Below, one piece after another: positions 14,022-60,555 of a DNA stretch of 64,000 bases (its first letter is position 1; each line of letters begins with the position of its first letter). The stretch lies in contig CBDBCY010000004.1 in NCBI GenBank assembly GCA_965203555.1, positions 2,976,001-3,040,000 of the forward strand, read 5' to 3'. The position numbers and the translations under genes were made by a program. This DNA comes from Acidimicrobiia bacterium. GTDB taxonomy: Bacteria; Actinomycetota; Acidimicrobiia; Spongiisociales; ZC4RG35. The notes under the pieces were generated by a model. The model was not told the origin of the DNA and did not search any database. It saw nothing but the letters and a program-made list of their open reading frames with translations.

Positions 14022-14043
14022 TGTCACACCCCCGTATTAAGGT
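14022..14043 (+). promoter_or_regulatory. PafBC/RecA-NDp-type promoter motif TGTCAC-N10-TA-N3-T
   Basis: TGTCAC ACCCCCGTAT TA AGG T, 20 bp upstream of the presumed DUF6361 start; the same geometry recurs at 57409-57430. Confidence 0.6.
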
Positions 14044-51145: not shown

Positions 51146-51225
51146 CCGCACTCCCGATACGATTCGTAATACACGTTTAGATACGATTTGTTGAATAGGT
51201 TGAATAGTCAGGGGGAGCCGTCTTC

Positions 51226-52776
51226 ATGAGCATCACCAACATCGCCGGTGTCGCCCGGCATCATGCCGCCGTACAACCGGACAAGACCGCCCTGGTCTAT
51301 GGATCGGAAGAAATCACCTTCGCAGAACTGGACGCTCGTTCTAGCCGCGCCGCCAACGCCATGGCCGCGGCCGGGGTGGGCCACGGAGACCATGTGGGTT
51401 TCCTGGACAAGAACTGCATGGAGTTCTTCGACTTCTTGTTCGGGGCGGCGAAGCTGGGAGCGGTCCACGCCGGCATCAACTGGCGGCTTGCTCCCCGGGA
51501 GATCACCGGGGTGGTCAACGATGCCGAGATCAAACTGTTGATCGTCGGTGAGGAGTACGTTCCCGTTCTGGACGAGATCGTCGGCGACCTCCAGACGGTC
51601 GAGAAGATACTGGTGGTGGGTGACCACGATACCCACCAGTCCTTCGAGGAGTGGCGGGACAGCCATCCCTCCGACGATCCCGGAGGAGGCGCCGAGGGAG
51701 ACGACACCGTGTTCCTGCTGTACTCCTCGGGCACCACCGGGTTTCCCAAGGGGGTGATGATCCCCAACGACGCCTTCATGGAGTTGAAGCGGGCCTGCTC
51801 GCCGATGTGGGGCTTCGACGGCGACTCGGTGAACCTGGTCAACCTTCCCATGTTTCACATCGGAGGGGTGGGATGGTCGTGTCTGGGGTTGTACAACGGC
51901 AACACCTCGATCGTCGCCCGGGACAACATCCCGCAACTCCTGGTGGATCTCACCGTGAGCCACCGGGTCACCAACGCCTTCCTGGTCCCGGTGCTGCTCC
52001 AGTTCATGCTGACGGTGCCGGGTGTGGATGACGCGGATTTCTCGGCGCTGAAAACCATCGTCTACGGCGGGTCTCCCATTTCTGAAGAGGTGCTCAACAA
52101 GTCGATCGAGGTGCTGGGATGCGAATTCGCCGGCGCCTACGGTCTCACCGAGTCCTGCAACGGGGTCACCACACTGTTCCCGGACGAGCATGACCCGGGC
52201 GGTCCCTACGCCTACCGGATGCTGTCGGTGGGCCGCCCTCATCCCAACGTGGAACTCATGATCGTCGACCCGGTCTCGACCGAACCGCTGGGAGTCGACG
52301 AGGTGGGCGAGATCTGGCTGCGATCTGCGCAGTTGATGAGCGGTTACTGGAAGAATCCTGAGGCCACCGCCGAAACCGTCAATGCCGAGGGGTGGATGCG
52401 CACCGGTGACGCAGGGTCGGTCGACGCCGACGGGTACGTCTACATCCGGGACCGCATCAAGGACATGATCATCTCCGGTGGTGAGAACATCTATCCGGCC
52501 GAAGTGGAGAACGCTCTGATGGAACATCCCGGGATAGCGGATGTGGCGGTGATCGGGGTCCCGAGCGCCAAGTGGGGCGAGACGCCCCGGGCGGTCATCG
52601 TCGCCACCGGGGACGAGGCGCCGACCGAAGCCGAGATCATCGAGTTCTGCCGCAGCAGGATCGCCCACTACAAGTGCCCGAGTTCGGTGGGGACCATCGA
52701 CGCGATTCCCCGCAACCCGTCCGGGAAGATCCTCAAGGGCGATCTGCGGGACATGTACCTGGCCGAACAGGCCTAG
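51226..52776 (+). CDS. Long-chain acyl-CoA ligase (AMP-binding)
   Basis: YSSGTTGFPKG, YGLTE, RTGD, DRIKDMIISGGENIYPAEVE, NPSGKILK. Confidence 0.92.
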   Translation: MSITNIAGVARHHAAVQPDKTALVYGSEEITFAELDARSSRAANAMAAAGVGHGDHVGFLDKNCMEFFDFLFGAAKLGAVHAGINWRLAPREITGVVNDAEIKLLIVGEEYVPVLDEIVGDLQTVEKILVVGDHDTHQSFEEWRDSHPSDDPGGGAEGDDTVFLLYSSGTTGFPKGVMIPNDAFMELKRACSPMWGFDGDSVNLVNLPMFHIGGVGWSCLGLYNGNTSIVARDNIPQLLVDLTVSHRVTNAFLVPVLLQFMLTVPGVDDADFSALKTIVYGGSPISEEVLNKSIEVLGCEFAGAYGLTESCNGVTTLFPDEHDPGGPYAYRMLSVGRPHPNVELMIVDPVSTEPLGVDEVGEIWLRSAQLMSGYWKNPEATAETVNAEGWMRTGDAGSVDADGYVYIRDRIKDMIISGGENIYPAEVENALMEHPGIADVAVIGVPSAKWGETPRAVIVATGDEAPTEAEIIEFCRSRIAHYKCPSSVGTIDAIPRNPSGKILKGDLRDMYLAEQA

Positions 52777-52788
52777 GGGAGCGGCGTT

Positions 52789-53706
52789 ATGCATCTGGGA
52801 GTGGTTTTCCCCCAGGTGGAGGTTGAGGCCGACCCGACCTTCGTGCGGGATTGGACGGAGACCGCCGAAGGCCTGGGCTACGACTCGATCCTCGCCTACG
52901 AGCATGTGTTGGGCGCCGACCCGTCCCGTCATACCCTGGTCGGTCCCTACACCCACGAAGACCCCTTTCACGAGCCTTTCGTGTTGTTCGGGTTCATGGC
53001 CGGGATCACCACCAGTATCGAGTTGTGGATGGGAGTGCTGGTGCTGCCGCAGCGGCAGACCGCCCTGGTGGCCAAGCAGGCGGCGACCCTGGACATCCTT
53101 TCGGGGGAGCGTTTCACCCTGGGGGTTGGTGTGGGTTGGAACCAGGTGGAATACCAGGTGCTGGGCCAGGATTTCAGCACACGGGGCCGACGGTTCGAAG
53201 AGCAGATCATGCTCCTGCGAGACCTTTGGGAGAACGATTTGGTCACCTTCGACGGTGAGTTCGATGAGGTAATGGCGGCCGGGATCAACCATCGCCCAAA
53301 CCGGCGTATCCCGCTGTGGATAGGGGGGTGGGCCGACCCGGTACTGAGGCGGATCGGTTACTGGGCGGACGGTTGGCTGGCCTCGGCCGGTTCTCCCAAG
53401 ACCGCTCACCTTCCCGATCGGACGGGCAACCCGGTGGGCTTGCGCAACCGGATGAGATTGGTGGAGACCGCCGCCCGGGAAAAGGACCGGGATCCCGCCG
53501 AGATCGGGGTGGGGATGCTCATCGGCGACGTGGGTTTCGAGGGGCTGGTCTCCTGGGATCCCGCCGAGTTCGCCCATCGCACCAGGGTGTGGACAGACGC
53601 CGGGGTGACCCATGCTTTCTTGGGAACGATCGGCCTGGACTTCACCCCCGGCCGGCACATCGCCGCCATGGAGGAATTCATGACGGAATACCGCAACGGC
53701 GGGTGA
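52789..53706 (+). CDS. LLM-class F420-dependent oxidoreductase
   Basis: AEGLGYDSILAYEHV, HEPFVLFG, VLVLPQRQTALVAKQAA, GVGVGWN. Confidence 0.88.
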   Translation: MHLGVVFPQVEVEADPTFVRDWTETAEGLGYDSILAYEHVLGADPSRHTLVGPYTHEDPFHEPFVLFGFMAGITTSIELWMGVLVLPQRQTALVAKQAATLDILSGERFTLGVGVGWNQVEYQVLGQDFSTRGRRFEEQIMLLRDLWENDLVTFDGEFDEVMAAGINHRPNRRIPLWIGGWADPVLRRIGYWADGWLASAGSPKTAHLPDRTGNPVGLRNRMRLVETAAREKDRDPAEIGVGMLIGDVGFEGLVSWDPAEFAHRTRVWTDAGVTHAFLGTIGLDFTPGRHIAAMEEFMTEYRNGG

Positions 53707-53744: not shown

Positions 53745-54732
53745 TCAGAAGTTCGGGGACAGTCCCGCCTCGCCCCGGTCGTCCATCGCCCGCTCCGAAC
53801 TGTGAATGCCTGTGTAGAGGTCGCGGTACTCCAGTGAGTCCTCGATAGCCTCGACCCGTCTGCGGATCTGACCGACGACGGCCGGCCCAGGCTGGAACTG
53901 TGCGGCGGTGTAATCAGCCACTGAGCAAGCTGCCGTGGTGATGGCTCTGAATTGCTCACCAGTGACCGTCGCGACGCGTTCGTAGCGGGCTTGCTGCTGC
54001 CAGTTGGCGAACTGCTCAAGCCCTACCGCCGCGATTCGCGTTTCTATCTGCGCCTTGTGGGATGCGGTGAGCTGGGAGACGAGCTTGCCAATGTCATGGC
54101 CCCCATGGTCGAGCGGTTGGCGCCCAAGCAAGACGAATCAGAGATTTCACGGCGGTCTCGACAGTGAGTTGCCCCGCGGCGCAGCCTAAAACGAGCCGAT
54201 GTTCAAACTCGGCGAAGGCGAGCATCGCGTCCCCCTCCTCCTCCAACTGCCGCTGGTAGAAAGAGGGCGTGAAGCTGGTTGCCAAGGTTCCGAGGGCACG
54301 TCCCATGTGGGACAATCGTTCCACCGATTCTTCGTAGTCGCTTCTGGGCATCACCATCTCTTTTTCCCAGTCGACTTTTGCCGGTTGGTTTTCTACGAGT
54401 ACCACCCCTTGCCTTTTTACGCGGCTCTCAAAGGAAGTCCGCACCTTCTCTGTCCGCATCTTCCATTCCGGCCAGTCCGTGACATGGATGTCCACGGCGC
54501 ATTCAACAGTAGAACTCGCAAGGCGGGCCAATCGTGCTGTGATCTCGTGTCGCCGGTAGTAATCGAGGTCGTCGTAGATAACCATCAGGTCGAGGTCGCT
54601 GTACCGATGAGCGTCGCCTCGCGCAACCGACCCGAACAATAAGATGCAACCGGCGCCAGTGTCGGCTAAGGCCTGGGCAGCCCGCTCAGCATCCGCCACA
54701 GTCGGAACGATCATCGGGTCAACGGTAACCAT
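53745..54732 (-). pseudogene. Nucleotidyltransferase-HEPN-like fusion interrupted by a +1 frameshift
   Basis: LLFGSVARG...SDLDL N-domain; ...VETAVKSLI...RPWG then HDIGKL...ARYE in the next frame; extra base in the C5 run at 54100-54104. Confidence 0.7.
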
Positions 54733-54904
54733 CAAACCCCCTCCTTCAGAACGGTTGCATCCGCCAGGCCCGAATTCTACCCAGCGCCCGCCCCGGTGGT
54801 AGGCCAGATCCGCATCCTCGGTCGACACCGGTGCGCCCTGTGTCTGAGCACCGCAACTCCCCCAGCATGACGAAGTCGATCTTTTGAGCTAGATTGAAGA
54901 GCAC

Positions 54905-55336: not shown

Positions 55337-56525
55337 TGTGATAGTGGCCGGAGTGGGTCTTCACCCCTGGGGGAAGTTCCCCTACAAGAGTTGGGTGGAG
55401 ATGGGCGCCGAGGTGGCGCTTGAGGCGGTGAAGGATGCCGGTGTCGAATGGACTGATGTGCAAGCCATGGTCTCGGGCGCCATGCAGTGGGGAGGATCGA
55501 CCGGCATGAGGTCGGGGAACACCATCTCGGCGGCGTTGGGAGAAACAGGGGTCCCCATCGCCAACATCAACAACGCCTGTGCCTCGGGTGGGTCTTTGAT
55601 GAGGGCCGCCTATGCGATGATCACCTCGGGGATGCACGAGTCGGTACTGGTGATCGGGACGGACAAGTCCCCCAAGGGGTATTTTCCCAGTGTCCCGGTG
55701 CTGGCCGACGAGCCCCAGCCGCCGGTGGACATGGTGCGCTGGCAGGTGGGAGTCCCCAATCCCGCCTATTGGGCGTTGGAGATGCGCAAGCGAATGGAGG
55801 CTTACGGTTCCACCGAGGAGCACCTCGCCAAGGTGAAGGTGAAGAACTCCAAGCACGGCGCCCTCAATCCCTTTGCCCGGTATCGCAAGGAGTTCAGCAT
55901 CGAGCAGGTGCTGGCCTCGCCCATGGTGTGCGACCCACTTCGCCTGCTGGAGATCTGCGCCACTTCCGACGGGGCGGCGGCCGTCCTGTTGGTGAGCGAC
56001 GCCAAGGCCCGCCAGTTGAGCGTCAACCCTATGGTGAAGGTGGCGGCCTGCTCCCTTGCCAGCGGCGAATTCGGCGATCCCACCATCCGCATTCCCCTGC
56101 TGTCGGCCGCCTCCGACGAAGCCGCCACCGCGCCGCTGCTCTCTGAGAGTCGCTTGGCGGCCCAGATGGCCTACGAGCAGGCCGGACTGGGACCCGAGGA
56201 CATGGATTTCGTGGAACTGCCCGACAACTCCTCCTGGCACGAACTCCAATACCTGGAGACCATGGGGTTTTGCGATGAGGGTGAGGCCGAGCAACTCCTG
56301 GACAAAGGCGCCACCACTCTCGGCGGAGAACTGCCCGTCTGTCCCAGCGGAGGATTTTCATCCTTCGGTGAGGCGACCATGGCCCAGGGAATCCTCCAGA
56401 TAGTCGAAGTGACCTGGCAGTTGCGCGGCACCGCGGGTGCCCGCCAAGTGGAAGGAGCCCGCAAAGCCATCACCGAGGTCTACGGCGCCCAGGCCAACAA
56501 CTCCGCCTGCATCCTGACCACCTAA
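55329..56525 (+). CDS. SCP2-type thiolase family protein
   Basis: NNACASG, NSKHGALNPFA, ICATSDGAAA, YEQAGLGPED, PSGG, QLRG.AG.RQV. Confidence 0.9.
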   Translation: MTDVIVAGVGLHPWGKFPYKSWVEMGAEVALEAVKDAGVEWTDVQAMVSGAMQWGGSTGMRSGNTISAALGETGVPIANINNACASGGSLMRAAYAMITSGMHESVLVIGTDKSPKGYFPSVPVLADEPQPPVDMVRWQVGVPNPAYWALEMRKRMEAYGSTEEHLAKVKVKNSKHGALNPFARYRKEFSIEQVLASPMVCDPLRLLEICATSDGAAAVLLVSDAKARQLSVNPMVKVAACSLASGEFGDPTIRIPLLSAASDEAATAPLLSESRLAAQMAYEQAGLGPEDMDFVELPDNSSWHELQYLETMGFCDEGEAEQLLDKGATTLGGELPVCPSGGFSSFGEATMAQGILQIVEVTWQLRGTAGARQVEGARKAITEVYGAQANNSACILTT

Positions 56526-56574
56526 GTCGAGCCGGCACCCACGAATGAGGATGGCGGATCCCTGAAACTCCACG

Positions 56575-56760
56575 ACCGAGATCCTTGTCTCGCCATACGA
56601 GTTGGGGATCAAGATCAGGATTGTGTGGCTGGTAGGCGACTGGGAATTGGACTCCGGTCCTCATCTGCCAGCACTTCCTGGTACTCGGCGGTGGAGTGTG
56701 AATTCGCGACGCATCGTCGTGGGTGAGGGTCGCTACAAGCTTCGGTTTGCGCTTTGCCAC
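56575..56760 (-). pseudogene. 5' remnant of a site-specific DNA methyltransferase (type III Mod-like)
   Basis: MAKRKPKLVATLTHDDASR..(shift)PTAEYQEVLADEDRSPI..(shift)VAY..NPDLDPQLVWRDKD, after which similarity stops; family recognised from memory. Confidence 0.6.
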
Positions 56761-56763
56761 GTA

Positions 56764-56979
56764 TCACCTTGCCTTGGTGGTTCGTAGCGGTAACGAGTTG
56801 GTTTCCAATGTCGAGAGGTCCAAACGCGCCGCGGCATGATTGATGTCGAATCCAACCACTTGGCCGCTCGCGTCGAGATCGACGTTGAGTCCGTCTGCGA
56901 CCTCAAGGGTTTCTGCGCTCGGTGTTGCCTTGAACTCAACGTAGAGGCTGTCGGTCTCGGGATAGTAACGAAGTTTCAT
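56764..56979 (-). CDS. DUF2283 family putative antitoxin
   Basis: MKLRYYPETDSLYVEF...EVADGLNVDLDASGQVVGFDI. Confidence 0.85.
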   Translation of the reverse strand: MKLRYYPETDSLYVEFKATPSAETLEVADGLNVDLDASGQVVGFDINHAAARLDLSTLETNSLPLRTTKAR

Positions 56980-57235
56980 GAGTCGTCCTTTCGGTAACGT
57001 CGGTCGAAGACGGCATTGTGGATAGTCTCTCCGTCAGCCAAAGTGATCACTGGTAGAAAACCGGGGGGCGGTCCTGTCAGAGTACATAACCTCATCCCAG
57101 AACGAATGGGCCCGTCTGGCTGCTCGTCTCGCCAGGCGCCGATTCGACAATCGTAACCTCTGGCGGAAATCATCTAAGAGCCTTTTCTTTACAAGGGCCG
57201 CGACTGCTCGCTTACCGATATCGAGGCCGCCTCAT
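56976..57235 (-). pseudogene. Degenerate toxin partner of DUF2283
   Basis: Fragments EQPDGPIR / FWDEV...PRF / VITLADGETIHNAVFDRRY spread over several frames; ATGA overlap with DUF2283; 5' limit approximate. Confidence 0.55.
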
Positions 57236-57408
57236 CCTGCCATCCGGATTCAAGGCTCGGCCACTTCCCACGGGTAGGCAGAGAATGCCCGTAGGTCCTT
57301 CGGTGGCTCTGGCGCACATCACCAGCGTCAAACGATTTGGAGGCAATTCAACTTCTGGAACTCCCGGGCCCGGGCCGAATGCCTTCTCCTTCTCCATTCC
57401 TGTGGTGC

Positions 57409-57430
57409 TGTCACAGTCTGGTCCTATCGT
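57409..57430 (+). promoter_or_regulatory. PafBC/RecA-NDp-type promoter motif TGTCAC-N10-TA-N3-T
   Basis: TGTCAC AGTCTGGTCC TA TCG T, 27 bp upstream of the ATPase start. Confidence 0.6.
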
Positions 57431-57457
57431 GTTGGGAGAGCAACAAGGGCGGATAAT

Positions 57458-59857
57458 TTGCTTCAGCAAGAGGTATTGAAGGAACTGGAGAGACTGGAGG
57501 CCAATGGTCGAACGGTCGATTTGGTGCTGGCCGCGATGGAAGGGGAGGAGGGCGTGGAGAGGGTGCTCACAGGGGGAACACCGACTGGCGCCGCGCCTGG
57601 GGACACCGTTGGCGACGATGGGTTGCCCGGTGTCTACCTGGAGAGTGTCACCGTGTGCGGGTTTCGGGGGATCGGGCCGGAGACGACCCTGGAGATACCG
57701 CCCGGCCCCGGTTTGACAATCGTGACAGGACGCAACGGTTCCGGCAAGTCCAGTTTTGCCGAGGCGCTGGAGGTGCTGCTGACCGGTGACACCCTTCGTT
57801 GGTCCGAAAAGAGAGGACCCTGGAAGGAAGGTTGGAAGAACCTCCATCACACCTCTCCTCCCAGGATCGCCGCCCGCTTCCAGGTGGAGGGCAAGAGAGG
57901 ACTGACCACTGCCGCAGCAACCTGGCCCGAGGGCGCCGATTACGGAGGGGTTCGCCGGACAGCCCAACACCATGGAGAGCGGCGCACCGACCTCGCAGGT
58001 GTCGGTTGGGAGGTTCCTCTGGATCTCTACCGGCCGCTGCTGTCCTACAACGAACTTGGGGTCATCGGCGCCGGACCTACCGCTCTCTTTGACGCTCTCA
58101 CCGCGGCCCTGGGTCTGGAATCTCTCCGCGGGGCTCGCAAACCCCTGTCCCAGGCCCGTCTGGCGCGGACCAGGCTCGACAAAGAGGTGACGAGGGAGCG
58201 GTTGGATCGCCTGCTGCCGGCGCTCAAGGCCATGGAGGACCCCCGGGCCGAAGCGGCCGTGGCGGCGCTCAACAAGAGAAGACGCGATCTCGATGAACTG
58301 GCCAGACTCGGTTCCGAGCCCGGTCCAGAGCAGGGTTCCCTGCGAAGACTGGCAAAACTGAAACCACCGGACCAGGAGGAGGTTCTGCGGATCGGCGCCG
58401 AACTGGAAGAGTCCCACTCGCTGGTTTCGGGGCTTCGGGGCGGTGAAGCGGAGCAGGCCGAGAGCCTGGCCAGCTTGCTCGAACAGGCGCTTGAACATCA
58501 TCGGCGACACGGCGATGAACCGTGTCCGGTCTGCGGAGTCGGAACCCTCGACCCCGATTGGCGGCGGTCCACCCAAGAGCAGGCGAAAATGTTGAATCAG
58601 CAGGCGGCCCGGTACCGGAGGGCTGCGAAGAGACGCGATCGGGCTTTGCAGGCTGCCCGGGGTCTGGTCGCCGTTCCTTCCATCCCCTCCGCAGACGCCA
58701 TCGACACTTCCCCTCTCCACGCTGCCTGGAGGCGCTGGGGGTCGCTGCCGGCCGACGCCGCCGAGGTCCCCGAGCATCTGCTGGCGGGTTACGAAGAGGT
58801 GGCGCGGGAGGCGGCCGCGGTGGCCGAACAGGCCGCTCCGTTGCATTCGGAACGGGAGGAGAAGTGGGCGCAAGTGTCGCCCGACCTGATGGCCTGGGTG
58901 GCCAAGGCCCGCCGGGCGGAGGAGTCGATGGAGGCGGTGGGCGCCATCCAGGATGCCGAAAAGGCCTTGAAGGAGGTGACGGAGGCGTTGCGCAATGCTC
59001 GGTGGGCGCCGATCGAGTCCGAAGCGCTTGGCCTCTGGAAAGACCTTCGTCTGCAGAGCAATGTCGATCTGCGCTCGGTGAAACTGGCCGGATCCGGAAC
59101 CTGGCGCCGGGTGGAACTCACCGTGGAGGTTGACGGAACGGAAGCGCCGGCGCTGGCGGTGGTCAGCCAGGGAGAACTCAGTTGTCTCGCCCTGTCGCTG
59201 TTCTTCCCCCGCGCCACCCTGGCGGACAGTCCCTTCCGGTTCCTGGTGATCGATGACCCGGTGCAGGCCATGGATCCCGCCCGGGTGGACGGATTGGCCG
59301 CGGTCTTCGACCGAATTGCCCAGGAGCGCCAACTGGTGGTGTTCACCCATGATGATCGCCTGCCCGAGTCGCTCCGGCGCATGAAGATCGCCCACACCTG
59401 CAAGAAGGTGACCCGCCGTCCCGGATCTGTCATAGAGGTGGCGGACAGCCGGGATCCTGTGAAGCAGTACTTTAGCGACGCCCGCAGCCTGATCAGCGAT
59501 GACGCCCTCCCCGACAATCTGGCCAGACGGGTGATACCGGGAATCTGCCGCAACGGATTGGAAGCCGCCTGCATCGAAGCGGTGCGACGGCGGCGGTTGG
59601 GGCAGGGCGAGGATCACGCCGCGGTTGAAGGTGCATTGGAAAGAGCCCACAAACTGACTCACAAGGCGGCCCTGGTCCTGTTTGACGACATGAAGGAAAG
59701 CGGCAATGTGTCAGACCGTATCAGACACCAGTGGGGAGCCAGTTTCGAGAACGCATTCTGGGGGGCCAACAAAGGGGCACACCGGTCGTACGGAGGCAAC
59801 CTTTCTCAACTCATTGGCGACTGCCGCGAACTGGCAGAGCAGCTTCGTCGCCTATGA
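57458..59857 (+). CDS. SMC/Rad50-type ABC ATPase with zinc hook and HEPN-like C-terminus (RloC-like architecture)
   Basis: GFRGIG, Walker A GRNGSGKSS, coiled coil with CPVCG, signature VSQGE, Walker B VIDDPVQAMD, VFTHD, then about 150 further residues with CRNGLE...NKGAH. Confidence 0.85.
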   Translation: MLQQEVLKELERLEANGRTVDLVLAAMEGEEGVERVLTGGTPTGAAPGDTVGDDGLPGVYLESVTVCGFRGIGPETTLEIPPGPGLTIVTGRNGSGKSSFAEALEVLLTGDTLRWSEKRGPWKEGWKNLHHTSPPRIAARFQVEGKRGLTTAAATWPEGADYGGVRRTAQHHGERRTDLAGVGWEVPLDLYRPLLSYNELGVIGAGPTALFDALTAALGLESLRGARKPLSQARLARTRLDKEVTRERLDRLLPALKAMEDPRAEAAVAALNKRRRDLDELARLGSEPGPEQGSLRRLAKLKPPDQEEVLRIGAELEESHSLVSGLRGGEAEQAESLASLLEQALEHHRRHGDEPCPVCGVGTLDPDWRRSTQEQAKMLNQQAARYRRAAKRRDRALQAARGLVAVPSIPSADAIDTSPLHAAWRRWGSLPADAAEVPEHLLAGYEEVAREAAAVAEQAAPLHSEREEKWAQVSPDLMAWVAKARRAEESMEAVGAIQDAEKALKEVTEALRNARWAPIESEALGLWKDLRLQSNVDLRSVKLAGSGTWRRVELTVEVDGTEAPALAVVSQGELSCLALSLFFPRATLADSPFRFLVIDDPVQAMDPARVDGLAAVFDRIAQERQLVVFTHDDRLPESLRRMKIAHTCKKVTRRPGSVIEVADSRDPVKQYFSDARSLISDDALPDNLARRVIPGICRNGLEAACIEAVRRRRLGQGEDHAAVEGALERAHKLTHKAALVLFDDMKESGNVSDRIRHQWGASFENAFWGANKGAHRSYGGNLSQLIGDCRELAEQLRRL

Positions 59858-60237
59858 GCAGGGACTTGATCGACCATGCTCATCGACTGATCAGGGCCAC
59901 AGAGACCTATGAAGTGGTGTGGCCCCGGGCAGTCGCCCTGCTCACCCGTCAGGCCTTGGAGGAAGCACTGGCCGATCTTTGGAGGTACCCCTACCCGGGT
60001 ATGGAGGATGCCAGTTGGTCGACTCAACTGGCCTGCTTGGACGAGGTGCTGGACGACGACACCCTGGTTGGCGAAATCCGAATGGCATGGGTCTGGCTGA
60101 GCCGGGCCTGTCACCATCACCACTACGAGTTGGATCCCACCGCCGCGGAACTGGATCGGTGGATACGGCAGACTGAGCGACTGGTGACAGTGGTTGCCGG
60201 TGGGACTGCTGAGTCTCGTCGGGACCTCCCCGGCTAG
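59854..60237 (+). CDS. Small helical protein with RX4H motif (HEPN-like)
   Basis: ATGA coupling to the ATPase; RAVALLTRQALEE...WLSRACHHHHYEL. Confidence 0.7.
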   Translation: MSRDLIDHAHRLIRATETYEVVWPRAVALLTRQALEEALADLWRYPYPGMEDASWSTQLACLDEVLDDDTLVGEIRMAWVWLSRACHHHHYELDPTAAELDRWIRQTERLVTVVAGGTAESRRDLPG

Positions 60238-60249
60238 CATCCCATCTGT

Positions 60250-60555
60250 ATGAGCCGTATAGCTGTGGTCGCCAAGCTGGTGGCTGCCGAGGGTAAACGA
60301 GAGGAACTGCGGGAGCGGTTGACCGAGCACTTTTCCAGGGTGGAGGATGAAGAGGGGACGCTGGTTTTCTCCTGGCAGGTCGACTTTCGCAACCCCGACG
60401 CGTTCTGGGCTTACGAGGTGTATGCCAGCCGGGAAGCCTTGGCGGCCCATGCCGAATGGGCGGCCGGAGCGGTGGAGGAGATGGCCGGACTGCTGGCTTC
60501 GCCGCCGGAGGTCTCCTTTTGCAGGCCGCTGATGGCCAAGGGCCTTCCCGAGTGA
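60250..60555 (+). CDS. Antibiotic biosynthesis monooxygenase (ABM) family protein
   Basis: VVAKLVAAEGKRE, EEGTLVF, YEVYASREALAAH. Confidence 0.85.
   Translation: MSRIAVVAKLVAAEGKREELRERLTEHFSRVEDEEGTLVFSWQVDFRNPDAFWAYEVYASREALAAHAEWAAGAVEEMAGLLASPPEVSFCRPLMAKGLPE

Follow-up and report, generated by a model that had tools for sequence, protein, structure and literature searches.

A widespread two-gene bacterial module pairs a zinc-hook ABC ATPase with a small free paralogue of its own C-terminal domain, a candidate two-subunit counterpart of RloC

RloC is an ATP-binding cassette (ABC) ATPase whose coiled coil bears a zinc hook and whose C-terminal nuclease has the form Arg-X3-Glu-X36-52-His, in which a serine is often found before the histidine. 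Each residue of the triad in the RloC of G. kaustophilus (R692, E696 and H737) is essential, and mutations of the zinc hook hyperactivate the nuclease (PMC2610378). The zinc hook and a DNA-dependent ATPase act as the switch of the nuclease, which becomes active in response to inducers of double-strand breaks (PMC3458546, PMC3874168). The silencer of RloC is internal, while PrrC needs an external one (PMC3458546). Here we describe a pair of adjacent genes in a window of 64,000 nucleotides from an Acidimicrobiia bacterium (contig CBDBCY010000004.1, positions 2,976,001 to 3,040,000, forward strand), the window being the whole stretch of DNA that was analysed. The pair encodes an ATPase built along the lines of RloC and a small protein whose sequence resembles the ATPase's own C-terminal domain. 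It belongs to a widespread two-gene bacterial module that is unnamed in the databases and literature searched.

The ATPase gene was located from the open reading frame (ORF) listing and its translation, and its parts are as follows.

57458..59857, + strand: gene for the 799-residue zinc-hook ABC (SMC/Rad50-type) ATPase with a predicted C-terminal HEPN-like domain; TTG start.
57458..57631, + strand: N-terminal region of about 58 residues ahead of the ABC head, conserved in the family (alignment A1) and without a family match.
57728..57754, + strand: Walker A, GRNGSGKSS, residues 91-99, from the alignment of 121 sequences.
58523..58534, + strand: zinc-hook motif CPVC, residues 356-359, in the middle of a long helical insert that separates the two halves of the head.
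59165..59176, + strand: ABC signature SQGE, residues 570-573, from the alignment of 121.
59240..59275, + strand: Walker B and D-loop, FLVIDDPVQAMD, residues 595-606, from the alignment of 121.
59342..59353, + strand: H-loop FTHD, residues 629-632, with H631 kept in 120 of 121 sequences.
59441..59854, + strand: predicted C-terminal HEPN-like domain, residues ~662-799, from alignment A3, the AlphaFold2 (AF2) model, Foldseek and hhalign.

An earlier note on this stretch, made from the letters alone, had described a Rad50-type ATPase of 799 residues with complete ABC motifs and a CPVC hook, and this description was borne out. Conservation was counted over the window protein and 120 database relatives (121 sequences), and every ABC motif was retained in 120-121 of them. 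The Walker A residues G91, G94, G96, K97 and S98, the hook residues C356, P357 and C359, and residues D599, D600, P601 and D606 of the Walker B/D-loop were each found in 121/121. The Walker B sequence (DDP) has an aspartate where the catalytic glutamate usually sits. The note had also pointed to a C-terminal extension carrying CRNGLE...NKGAH, which is present and conserved: the motif CRNGLEA corresponds to residues 697-703 and NKGAH to residues 771-775, and within them R698 is kept in 120/121 sequences, E702 in 119/121 and H775 in 118/121, the other three having gaps. The position given as the start of the gene, 57409, is the first base of an upstream motif, TGTCACAGTCTGGTCCTATCGT, and the gene itself starts at 57458.

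Family searches recognised only the head of this protein. Pfam placed SMC_N/AAA_23 at residues 60-127 and AAA_21 at residues 558-634, and gave no match for residues 1-58 and 650-799. The top sequence matches in the PDB were solved SMC and Rad50 heads (E 2e-8 to 1e-5). The best PADLOC matches were all partial, namely LmuB (PDLC03859, residues 238-640), mad3 and PDC-S06, and the NCBIfam scan found no model near its own cutoff. Homologues were abundant, the closest being 97% identical, with 1713 at E<=1e-3 among 8000 candidates scored. In a subgroup of 909-927 residues (P0053, P0057, P0061-P0063 and P0066) the first coiled-coil arm is lengthened by an insertion of about 130 residues (about 271-410 in P0063). 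These variants were considered as fusions to the partner described below and were rejected as such, the insertion being a coiled-coil one unrelated to the partner.

An antisense ORF of 816 codons (57212-59662, - strand) is longer than the ATPase gene and lies almost wholly opposite it. Since the ATPase has a 97% identical homologue and hundreds of full-length relatives, it was taken as the real gene and the antisense ORF as its shadow. A second 816-codon shadow ORF (51208-53658, - strand) faces the genes for the AMP-binding and luciferase-like proteins. High guanine-cytosine (GC) content accounts for both of these artefacts, which would mislead a gene caller favouring the longest ORF.

The second gene of the pair follows without a gap.

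59854..60237, + strand: gene for the 127-residue partner, a free-standing paralogue of the ATPase tail; its ATG start overlaps the TGA of the ATPase gene.
59947-59961, + strand: partner R32-x3-E36, from the partner alignment.
60100-60114, + strand: partner S83-x3-H87, from the partner alignment.

The overlap of the ATPase stop and the partner start at 59854-57 forms ATGA and reads ...CTATGAGC..., so that the ATGA-coupled protein with TRQALEE and SRACHHHH reported in the note was found as described. The constancy of this arrangement was assessed by a scan of one genome per species over 185,579 species, in which at least 296 relatives of the ATPase were confirmed and the best 80 loci were kept. 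When all ORFs of these loci were searched by phmmer with the 127-residue query, 78 of the 80 were found to encode a homologue of the partner, on the same strand as the ATPase and immediately 3' of it. The two loci with no visible partner are on short contigs that end too early (L018, 2.5 kb; L068, 1.5 kb). The overlap between the ATPase stop and the partner start is 4 nt in most of the 80. All-against-all clustering of the flanking ORFs yielded no third conserved gene; the partner was the only one shared beyond one genus, and the remaining clusters (14-17 loci) reflect synteny within Nocardia. The module is thus a two-gene unit and the pair is obligate. The co-occurrence that the note had proposed as a check was found, and the absence of an Mre11/SbcD partner that it had remarked on was borne out. 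The neighbours in the window are DUF2283, ABM and other genes, and no metallophosphatase of the Mre11/SbcD type was found in the window or among the immediate neighbours of the relatives. For the latter, ORFs were called with a GC3 heuristic and the closest one upstream and downstream was taken, which gave 110 proteins in 64 loci after 16 of the 18 Nocardia loci had been dropped as syntenic duplicates (0/110 metallophosphatases).

The 80 loci span about seven phyla. By record title they comprise Actinomycetota (53), Acidobacteriota (8), Chloroflexota (6), Dormibacterota (5), Proteobacteria, Myxococcota and 'Deltaproteobacteria' together (4), Gemmatimonadota (1), Spirochaetia (1) and unclassified records (2). 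When 1.84 billion cluster representatives were searched with a profile built from 40 partners, 1369 proteins scored E<=1e-3, of which 1013 reached E<=1e-10, and nearly all of the best 150 matches are 107-175 residues long. One 485-residue match (P0251) and five longer proteins (P0273-P0277) were considered as natural fusions of tail and partner and were rejected, their linkers being Arg/Pro-rich junk of a frameshift-like kind.

The relation of the partner to the ATPase was deduced from a comparison of two alignments, one of 39 ATPase tails (A3) and one of 40 partners (A2). With hhalign these matched over 111 columns with a probability of 92.8% (E 4.1e-7), in a register that sets CRNGLEAA opposite TRQALEEA and NKGAH opposite SRACH. 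On this sequence evidence the partner is a paralogue of the ATPase's own C-terminal domain. The conserved patches correspond as well, being R32-x-A-x-E36 and S83-x-A-x-H87 in the partner and C-R698-x-x-x-E702-A-A and N771-x-G-x-H775 in the tail. Across 150 partner sequences R32 was found in 149, E36 in 150 and H87 in 150, and S83 was found in 138 with threonine at that position in 9 more. The earlier note had singled out R-X4-H (R84...H89) as the key motif of the partner. R84 was kept in only 75/150 sequences and H89 in 118/150, as against 149-150/150 for R32, E36 and H87, so R-X4-H is not the conserved feature. Nor is RX4-6H, which the note took as catalytic, the catalytic-type motif of either protein. 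In both domains the conserved motif is instead R-x3-E on helix 2 and [S/N]-x3-H at the end of helix 3.

The fold of the two domains was examined with AF2 models built from the alignments, which had mean predicted local distance difference test (pLDDT) scores of 92.4 for the partner and 93.9 for the tail. The partner model has helices at 2-16, 24-43, 69-86 and 97-123 with an insert at 55-65, and the tail model shows the same helix order with an insert of three helices. Helix 2 carries the Arg/Glu patch in both models, and the histidine sits at the end of helix 3. When the partner model was compared with the PDB by Foldseek, ranks 1-8 had probabilities of 0.97-1.00 and template modelling (TM) scores up to 0.65-0.69. 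They comprised chains that are described as HEPN or as a HEPN homologue or are otherwise known as HEPN, namely 1wol, 3o10 (the sacsin HEPN domain), 1o3u, 1ufb and 4nqf (twice), plus 2q00 (twice). The first unrelated match, a ribosome-biogenesis chain at rank 9, dropped to a probability of 0.30, and lower-ranked matches included the HEPN-named 2hsb (rank 10) and, further down, HepT-type toxins. The tail gave weaker matches, with 2q00 at 0.85-0.91, 4nqf at 0.57 and the others at <=0.23. The HEPN fold that the note had proposed for both candidates was therefore well matched for the partner and less so for the tail. From these models both domains are predicted to be HEPN-like bundles with a four-helix up-down core.

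The survey of HEPN domains places the catalytic motif where helix 3 ends and a conserved acidic residue on helix 2, and records inserts between helices 2 and 3 (PMC3710099). In the AF2 models and alignments H87 and H775 are at the catalytic position of HEPN domains, and the nearly invariant E36 and E702 are on helix 2. Two further lines were treated as leads only or set aside. In a language-model comparison the partner fell near clusters of RnlA/LsoA-type HEPN proteins (score 0.80), and the tail fell near short clusters that have AAA_13 in 13-27% of their members (0.87-0.88). Prediction of a complex between tail (A3) and partner (A2) gave 0.12 and 0.22 against a mark of 0.32, and was counted neither for nor against binding.

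The likeness to RloC that the note had drawn from the architecture (ABC head, zinc-hook coiled coil, C-terminal nuclease-type domain) held on closer comparison. As in RloC, the ATPase is a single polypeptide of about 800 residues with the ABC head motifs, a CXXC zinc-hook insert that is predicted to form a coiled coil, and a C-terminal Arg-X3-Glu...His, and it lacks an SbcD/Mre11 partner. The placement of R698 and E702 matches that of R692 and E696 almost residue for residue, the histidines being H775 here and H737 in RloC. Both are occasionally linked to restriction-modification (R-M) genes. In the partner, the arrangement R32-x3-E36-x50-H87 falls within the RloC range of 36-52, and S83 lies four residues before the histidine. 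Unlike RloC, the module has a second gene for a free paralogue of the tail and an extra conserved N-terminal region of about 58 residues, and is found mainly in Actinomycetota and soil phyla.

Other described systems share fewer features. PrrC, from the EcoprrI type Ic R-M locus of E. coli, likewise has an ABC-type nucleoside triphosphatase followed by a C-terminal HEPN-type nuclease with an Arg-Glu-His triad, is controlled by a second protein and is linked to restriction genes, but it has no coiled coil or zinc hook, and its silencer is the R-M enzyme rather than a paralogue of the nuclease domain. The ERFG_01251-type proteins are also ABC ATPases fused to HEPN domains in defence contexts; they are set apart by their description, in which a classical Rx4-6H HEPN near the MNT-associated type is present (PMC3710099). 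The partner also resembles HepT/MntA and the small HEPN toxins, its best structural matches including HepT-type and small archaeal and bacterial HEPN proteins. In contrast to HepT/MntA, the module has no MNT partner, its motif differs, and the proposed pairing is of an SMC-like-fused domain with a free paralogue. Lamassu LmuB and Rad50/SbcC share the coiled-coil ABC ATPase, and Rad50/SbcC also the zinc hook, whereas the module has no LmuA/LmuC or SbcD/Mre11 gene and the C-terminal HEPN-like domain is absent from those proteins.

HEPN RNases such as Cas13, Csm6 and RnlA work as paired domains that form a composite site. The paralogy of partner and tail makes a hetero-pair of the two domains plausible, and since catalytic-type residues are kept in both proteins, both are argued to be active parts. 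We therefore read the module as a putative two-subunit form of the RloC-type ABC-HEPN systems, and it is probably a DNA-sensing, RNA-cutting defence device. In the mechanism that we propose, the coiled-coil, zinc-hook ATPase would sense a DNA cue, which could be DNA ends, breaks or failed restriction. ATP binding or hydrolysis would then turn on a metal-independent RNase, to which each protein would contribute its HEPN-like domain in a cis/trans hetero-pair, and this RNase would cut tRNA or another RNA so that translation halts. The RNase activity, its RNA target, the sensing of DNA and the physical pairing of the domains are all proposed by analogy. The strongest argument for a joint active unit is that the full triad is kept family-wide in both domains, together with the translational coupling of the two genes. 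An anti-phage or abortive-infection module with this RloC-like logic, in which the zinc-hook ATPase licenses an RNase made from two paralogous HEPN-like domains, is in our judgment about evenly balanced between being right and being wrong.

A number of observations count against this interpretation. The tail spacing, R698-x3-E702-x72-H775, is outside the range of 36-52 given for RloC, and the residue four before the histidine is Asn and not Ser. The canonical Rx4-6H arginine is absent, with no conserved Arg 4-6 residues before H87 or H775, and R84 is 3 before H87. Every Foldseek E-value was >=0.076 and helical bundles match easily, so the HEPN assignment rests on the ranking of folds and not on statistics. 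Neither domain could be linked at the sequence level to a HEPN family or to the nuclease part of PrrC/RloC. Among 39 tails and 40 partners Pfam yielded scattered single-member matches and no consistent family, PADLOC gave no consistent match and NCBIfam none, and profile searches of both domains against PDB sequences gave chance-level matches only. The AAA_13 model (PF13166), which represents PrrC/RloC, was passed by 2 of the 11 relatives scanned, and its alignment never extended beyond about position 577 of the 713 in the profile. Since AAA_13 covers only the ABC part, the module is described as working like RloC and is not filed as a member of it. No clean natural fusion of ATPase and partner was found among the longer proteins examined. 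About two thirds of the 64 loci have ordinary metabolic or unknown genes as immediate neighbours, and the window likewise has metabolic ones. Relatives of the module were found in 4 of 72,556 plasmid records and in 0 of 50,697 phage records, and within Nocardia the module lies in conserved synteny, which together give it a more vertical look than a typical mobile defence gene.

A more specific version of the two-subunit interpretation is offered tentatively, as less likely than not. It would make the module a third class of ABC-HEPN immune system, so far undescribed and common in Actinomycetota and other soil phyla. Its RNase would be an obligate composite, one part being the tail of a Rad50-like zinc-hook DNA sensor and the other a free paralogue of that tail; activity would depend on a hetero-pair assembled or opened by the ATPase cycle, and the motif would be the non-canonical R-x3-E/[S,N]-x3-H in both halves, with recurrent attachment to R-M genes and PafBC wiring in some lineages.

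The same paralogy could be read with the roles inverted. The partner would then be an antitoxin-like silencer that caps the HEPN-like domain of the ATPase, blocks productive homodimerisation of the two tails within the ATPase dimer and is displaced on a trigger; alternatively, the partner would be a toxin restrained by the tail. As a tail paralogue the partner could fill the same dimer interface, tight translational coupling is also seen in toxin-antitoxin pairs, and the external silencer of PrrC offers a precedent (PMC3458546). A pure decoy, however, needs no intact triad, yet the partner keeps E36 and H87 in all 150 sequences and R32 in all but one. This inversion is the main rival and is considered rather unlikely.

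The surroundings of the module in its relatives bear on the two-subunit defence reading and on the rivals that remain. With a PADLOC cutoff of E<=1e-10, 24 of the 110 neighbours matched PADLOC models. Six of these were discounted as generic or as fragments of the module itself (L003, L004, L058, L066, L067 and L071), and the remaining 18, in 17 loci, were judged informative. These were GmrSD (two), type I methyltransferase (two), a type IV restriction enzyme, SngC/BrxH, BrxH/DrmD, ThsA-SIR2, Cas7 plus WYL, RmrA, MkoA, HNH, an LmuB-like SbcC, and PDC-S09, S11, S14 and S41. Pfam added three PIN toxins and one GmrSD_C. A conflict-type immediate neighbour was thus present in about 21 of the 64 loci, and enrichment is here an informed judgment rather than a test; the defence-type setting anticipated by the note applies to about one third of the loci, and the rest have metabolic or unknown neighbours.

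Certain neighbours recur. Homologous N6-adenine methyltransferases of about 730 residues lie just upstream on the opposite strand in five loci from three genera (L021, L058, L059, L064 and L065). The linkage may be to an R-M system, as it is for prrC and for the rlo genes, whose name recalls their restriction-linked origin. They correspond to the PADLOC model MTase_I PDLC03037 and are 37-48% identical across Micromonospora, Streptomyces and Nocardia wallacei. Two Streptomyces plasmids carry the module behind DUF6119 and TPR genes, with an NB-ARC gene in addition on pM92, and ahead of a helicase/ATPase of about 1185 residues. These plasmid islands occupy 647-14348 in L081 (pM92) and 3918-15386 in L082. 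A large helicase/ATPase of the same kind (about 1150-1185 residues, 62-67% identity) also follows the module in the chromosomal locus L065 (8682-12137). In one metagenome-assembled genome of Actinomycetota a Tpt1/KptA RNA 2'-phosphotransferase gene lies directly 3' of the module (L024, 8793-9350, - strand); an RNA-repair-type enzyme beside a putative RNase is suggestive, as a single case. In two Lentzea loci (L051, 9559-12186; L062, 9102-12203) the module is followed by an AAA_27-type ATPase of 876-1034 residues, 78-80% identical between them, which at its N-terminus weakly resembles the window ATPase around Walker A (E 4e-7).

Upstream of the ATPase gene in the window is a candidate promoter motif.

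57409..57430, + strand: RecA-NDp/PafBC-like promoter motif, TGTCACAG-TCTGGTCC-TATCGT with an N8 spacer, ending 28 nt 5' of the ATPase start codon.

The motif fits the RecA-independent (PafBC) promoter pattern, with the consensus taken to be TGTCR..G-N8-TAnnnT. A loose form of it, TGTCR-N11-TAnnnT, was scanned on both strands and proved rare, with 2 matches in the window and 9 in 1.71 Mb of the relatives' loci. The PafBC-type motif of the earlier note is thus present and of a rare pattern, and among the relatives it lies upstream of the ATPase in only 2 of 64 (L001 and L042; 0.09 expected). L001 is the closest genome relative, and the first 8 bases of its motif are the same as in the window. 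A LexA-type (SOS) box was found upstream of the ATPase in 0/64 loci. Since the motif is confined to two relatives, control would be lineage-specific at most, and DNA-damage (PafBC) control is plausible for a few lineages and not as a property of the family. The other match to the loose pattern in the window, TGTCACACCCCCGTATTAAGGT, is at 14022-14043 on the + strand.

The DNA-damage-type motif in the window, L001 and L042 would also suit a housekeeping or stress factor of DNA repair or chromosome maintenance, namely a Rad50/SbcC-like tether in which tail and partner are non-catalytic adaptor or nucleic-acid-binding domains. The same can be said of the solved SMC and Rad50 heads among the best sequence matches and of the electronic Gene Ontology (GO) term that RefSeq attaches to the ATPase, 'double-strand break repair'. 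The module lies on chromosomes, keeps its synteny within Nocardia, seldom occurs on plasmids and is missing from the phage records, and non-catalytic HEPN domains do exist (PMC3710099). Such a factor would not be expected to keep the Arg/Glu/His triad near-invariant in both domains. It is also opposed by the lack of an SbcD/Mre11-type nuclease in the window and among the 110 neighbours, by the patchy distribution (at least 296 relatives among 185,579 species genomes), by the restriction, toxin-antitoxin and CRISPR genes that are frequent neighbours, and by the missing SOS box. A non-catalytic repair or tether role is regarded as improbable, though the chromosomal and partly syntenic distribution keeps it in play.

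A divergent Lamassu, in which the ATPase would be LmuB and the tail and partner would replace LmuA and LmuC, is suggested by the best PADLOC match of the ATPase (PDLC03859, E 6.8e-21). That match covers only part of the protein, and the same model matches an unrelated SbcC-like neighbour in L020 more strongly (3.4e-32), so it was treated as a generic coiled-coil ABC model. LmuA appeared as a stray match in 1 of 40 partner members (E 0.0055) and not for the tail, and no third gene is conserved. This derivation is very hard to credit. An ordinary single-chain RloC orthologue beside a functionally unrelated gene, which the domain order, the triad position relative to G. kaustophilus RloC and the two relatives passing AAA_13 might suggest, was given next to no weight, given that the window ATPase scores 13.9 bits against the AAA_13 cutoff of 36 and that a tail-homologous partner, usually with a 4-nt overlap, stands next to the ATPase in 78/80 loci. 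A small share of the weight is assigned to none of these readings.

The note had not recognised the pair as a named system, and no match to one was found in PADLOC v2, Pfam or NCBIfam. Neither the tail nor the partner is covered by a model of Pfam (2025 copy), of NCBIfam (June 2026) or of PADLOC v2 (2023). In the full-text literature searched no RloC-like ATPase with a paralogous HEPN partner was described, while the 2020 classification of ABC ATPases (Krishnan et al.) may already name the clade. RefSeq labels the two proteins 'AAA family ATPase' and 'hypothetical protein'. The module therefore supplies an annotation rule for a pair that is at present labelled generically and whose GO term may mislead. 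The family is large: its partners form at least 1369 clusters at 50% identity, and it occurs in no fewer than 296 species genomes. If the two-subunit defence reading is right, the known defence systems of Actinomycetota, Acidobacteriota, Chloroflexota and Dormibacterota, phyla that current catalogues serve poorly, would gain a large family. RloC is one of few devices that couple the sensing of DNA breaks to the shutdown of translation. A nuclease divided between the sensor and a paralogous subunit would, if true, allow the control of the nuclease by the Rad50-like arm to be studied with parts that can be separated genetically.

In the window the pair lies amid genes of a lipid-catabolism type (AMP-binding, luciferase-like, ChsH2-like, thiolase, ABM, PNPOx and acyl-CoA dehydrogenase), and the following small genes lie upstream.

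53748-54131, - strand: ORF of 128 residues downstream of the MNT gene and overlapping it; no family match.
54097-54828, - strand: MNT-type nucleotidyltransferase; Pfam NTP_transf_2/Polbeta, NCBIfam MntA-like with 45 bits, below its cutoff of 60.
56473..56760, - strand: short methyltransferase-like ORF, likely a gene remnant; no Pfam or NCBIfam match.
56767-56979, - strand: DUF2283 gene; Pfam DUF2283, 2.2e-14.
56979-57173, - strand: ORF of 65 residues upstream of the DUF2283 gene, with a 4-nt overlap; no match in Pfam, NCBIfam or plasmids.

The toxin-antitoxin and methylase remnants that the note had placed nearby were recovered in part. The DUF2283 gene and the 65-residue ORF look like a toxin-antitoxin arrangement between the methylase remnant and the module, and the MNT gene with its 128-residue ORF, 2.6 kb from the module, may be a toxin-antitoxin pair of the MNT-HEPN type. 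The methylase remnant gave only a weak match, its first 61 residues being 45.9% identical to the N-terminal part of a DNA methyltransferase annotated on a plasmid (E 1e-4), and no homology was found between it and the methyltransferase of about 730 residues beside the relatives. The GC content falls to 0.565 at 56.5-57.5 kb, compared with about 0.61-0.67 on the flanks, over a span that holds the methylase remnant, the toxin-antitoxin-like genes and the promoter region, and this dip suggests an old insertion boundary. On the other side, a gene for an ABM-domain protein (60250-60555, + strand) begins 13 nt after the partner stop; it is not conserved beside the module elsewhere, and in the window it may be co-transcribed with the pair.

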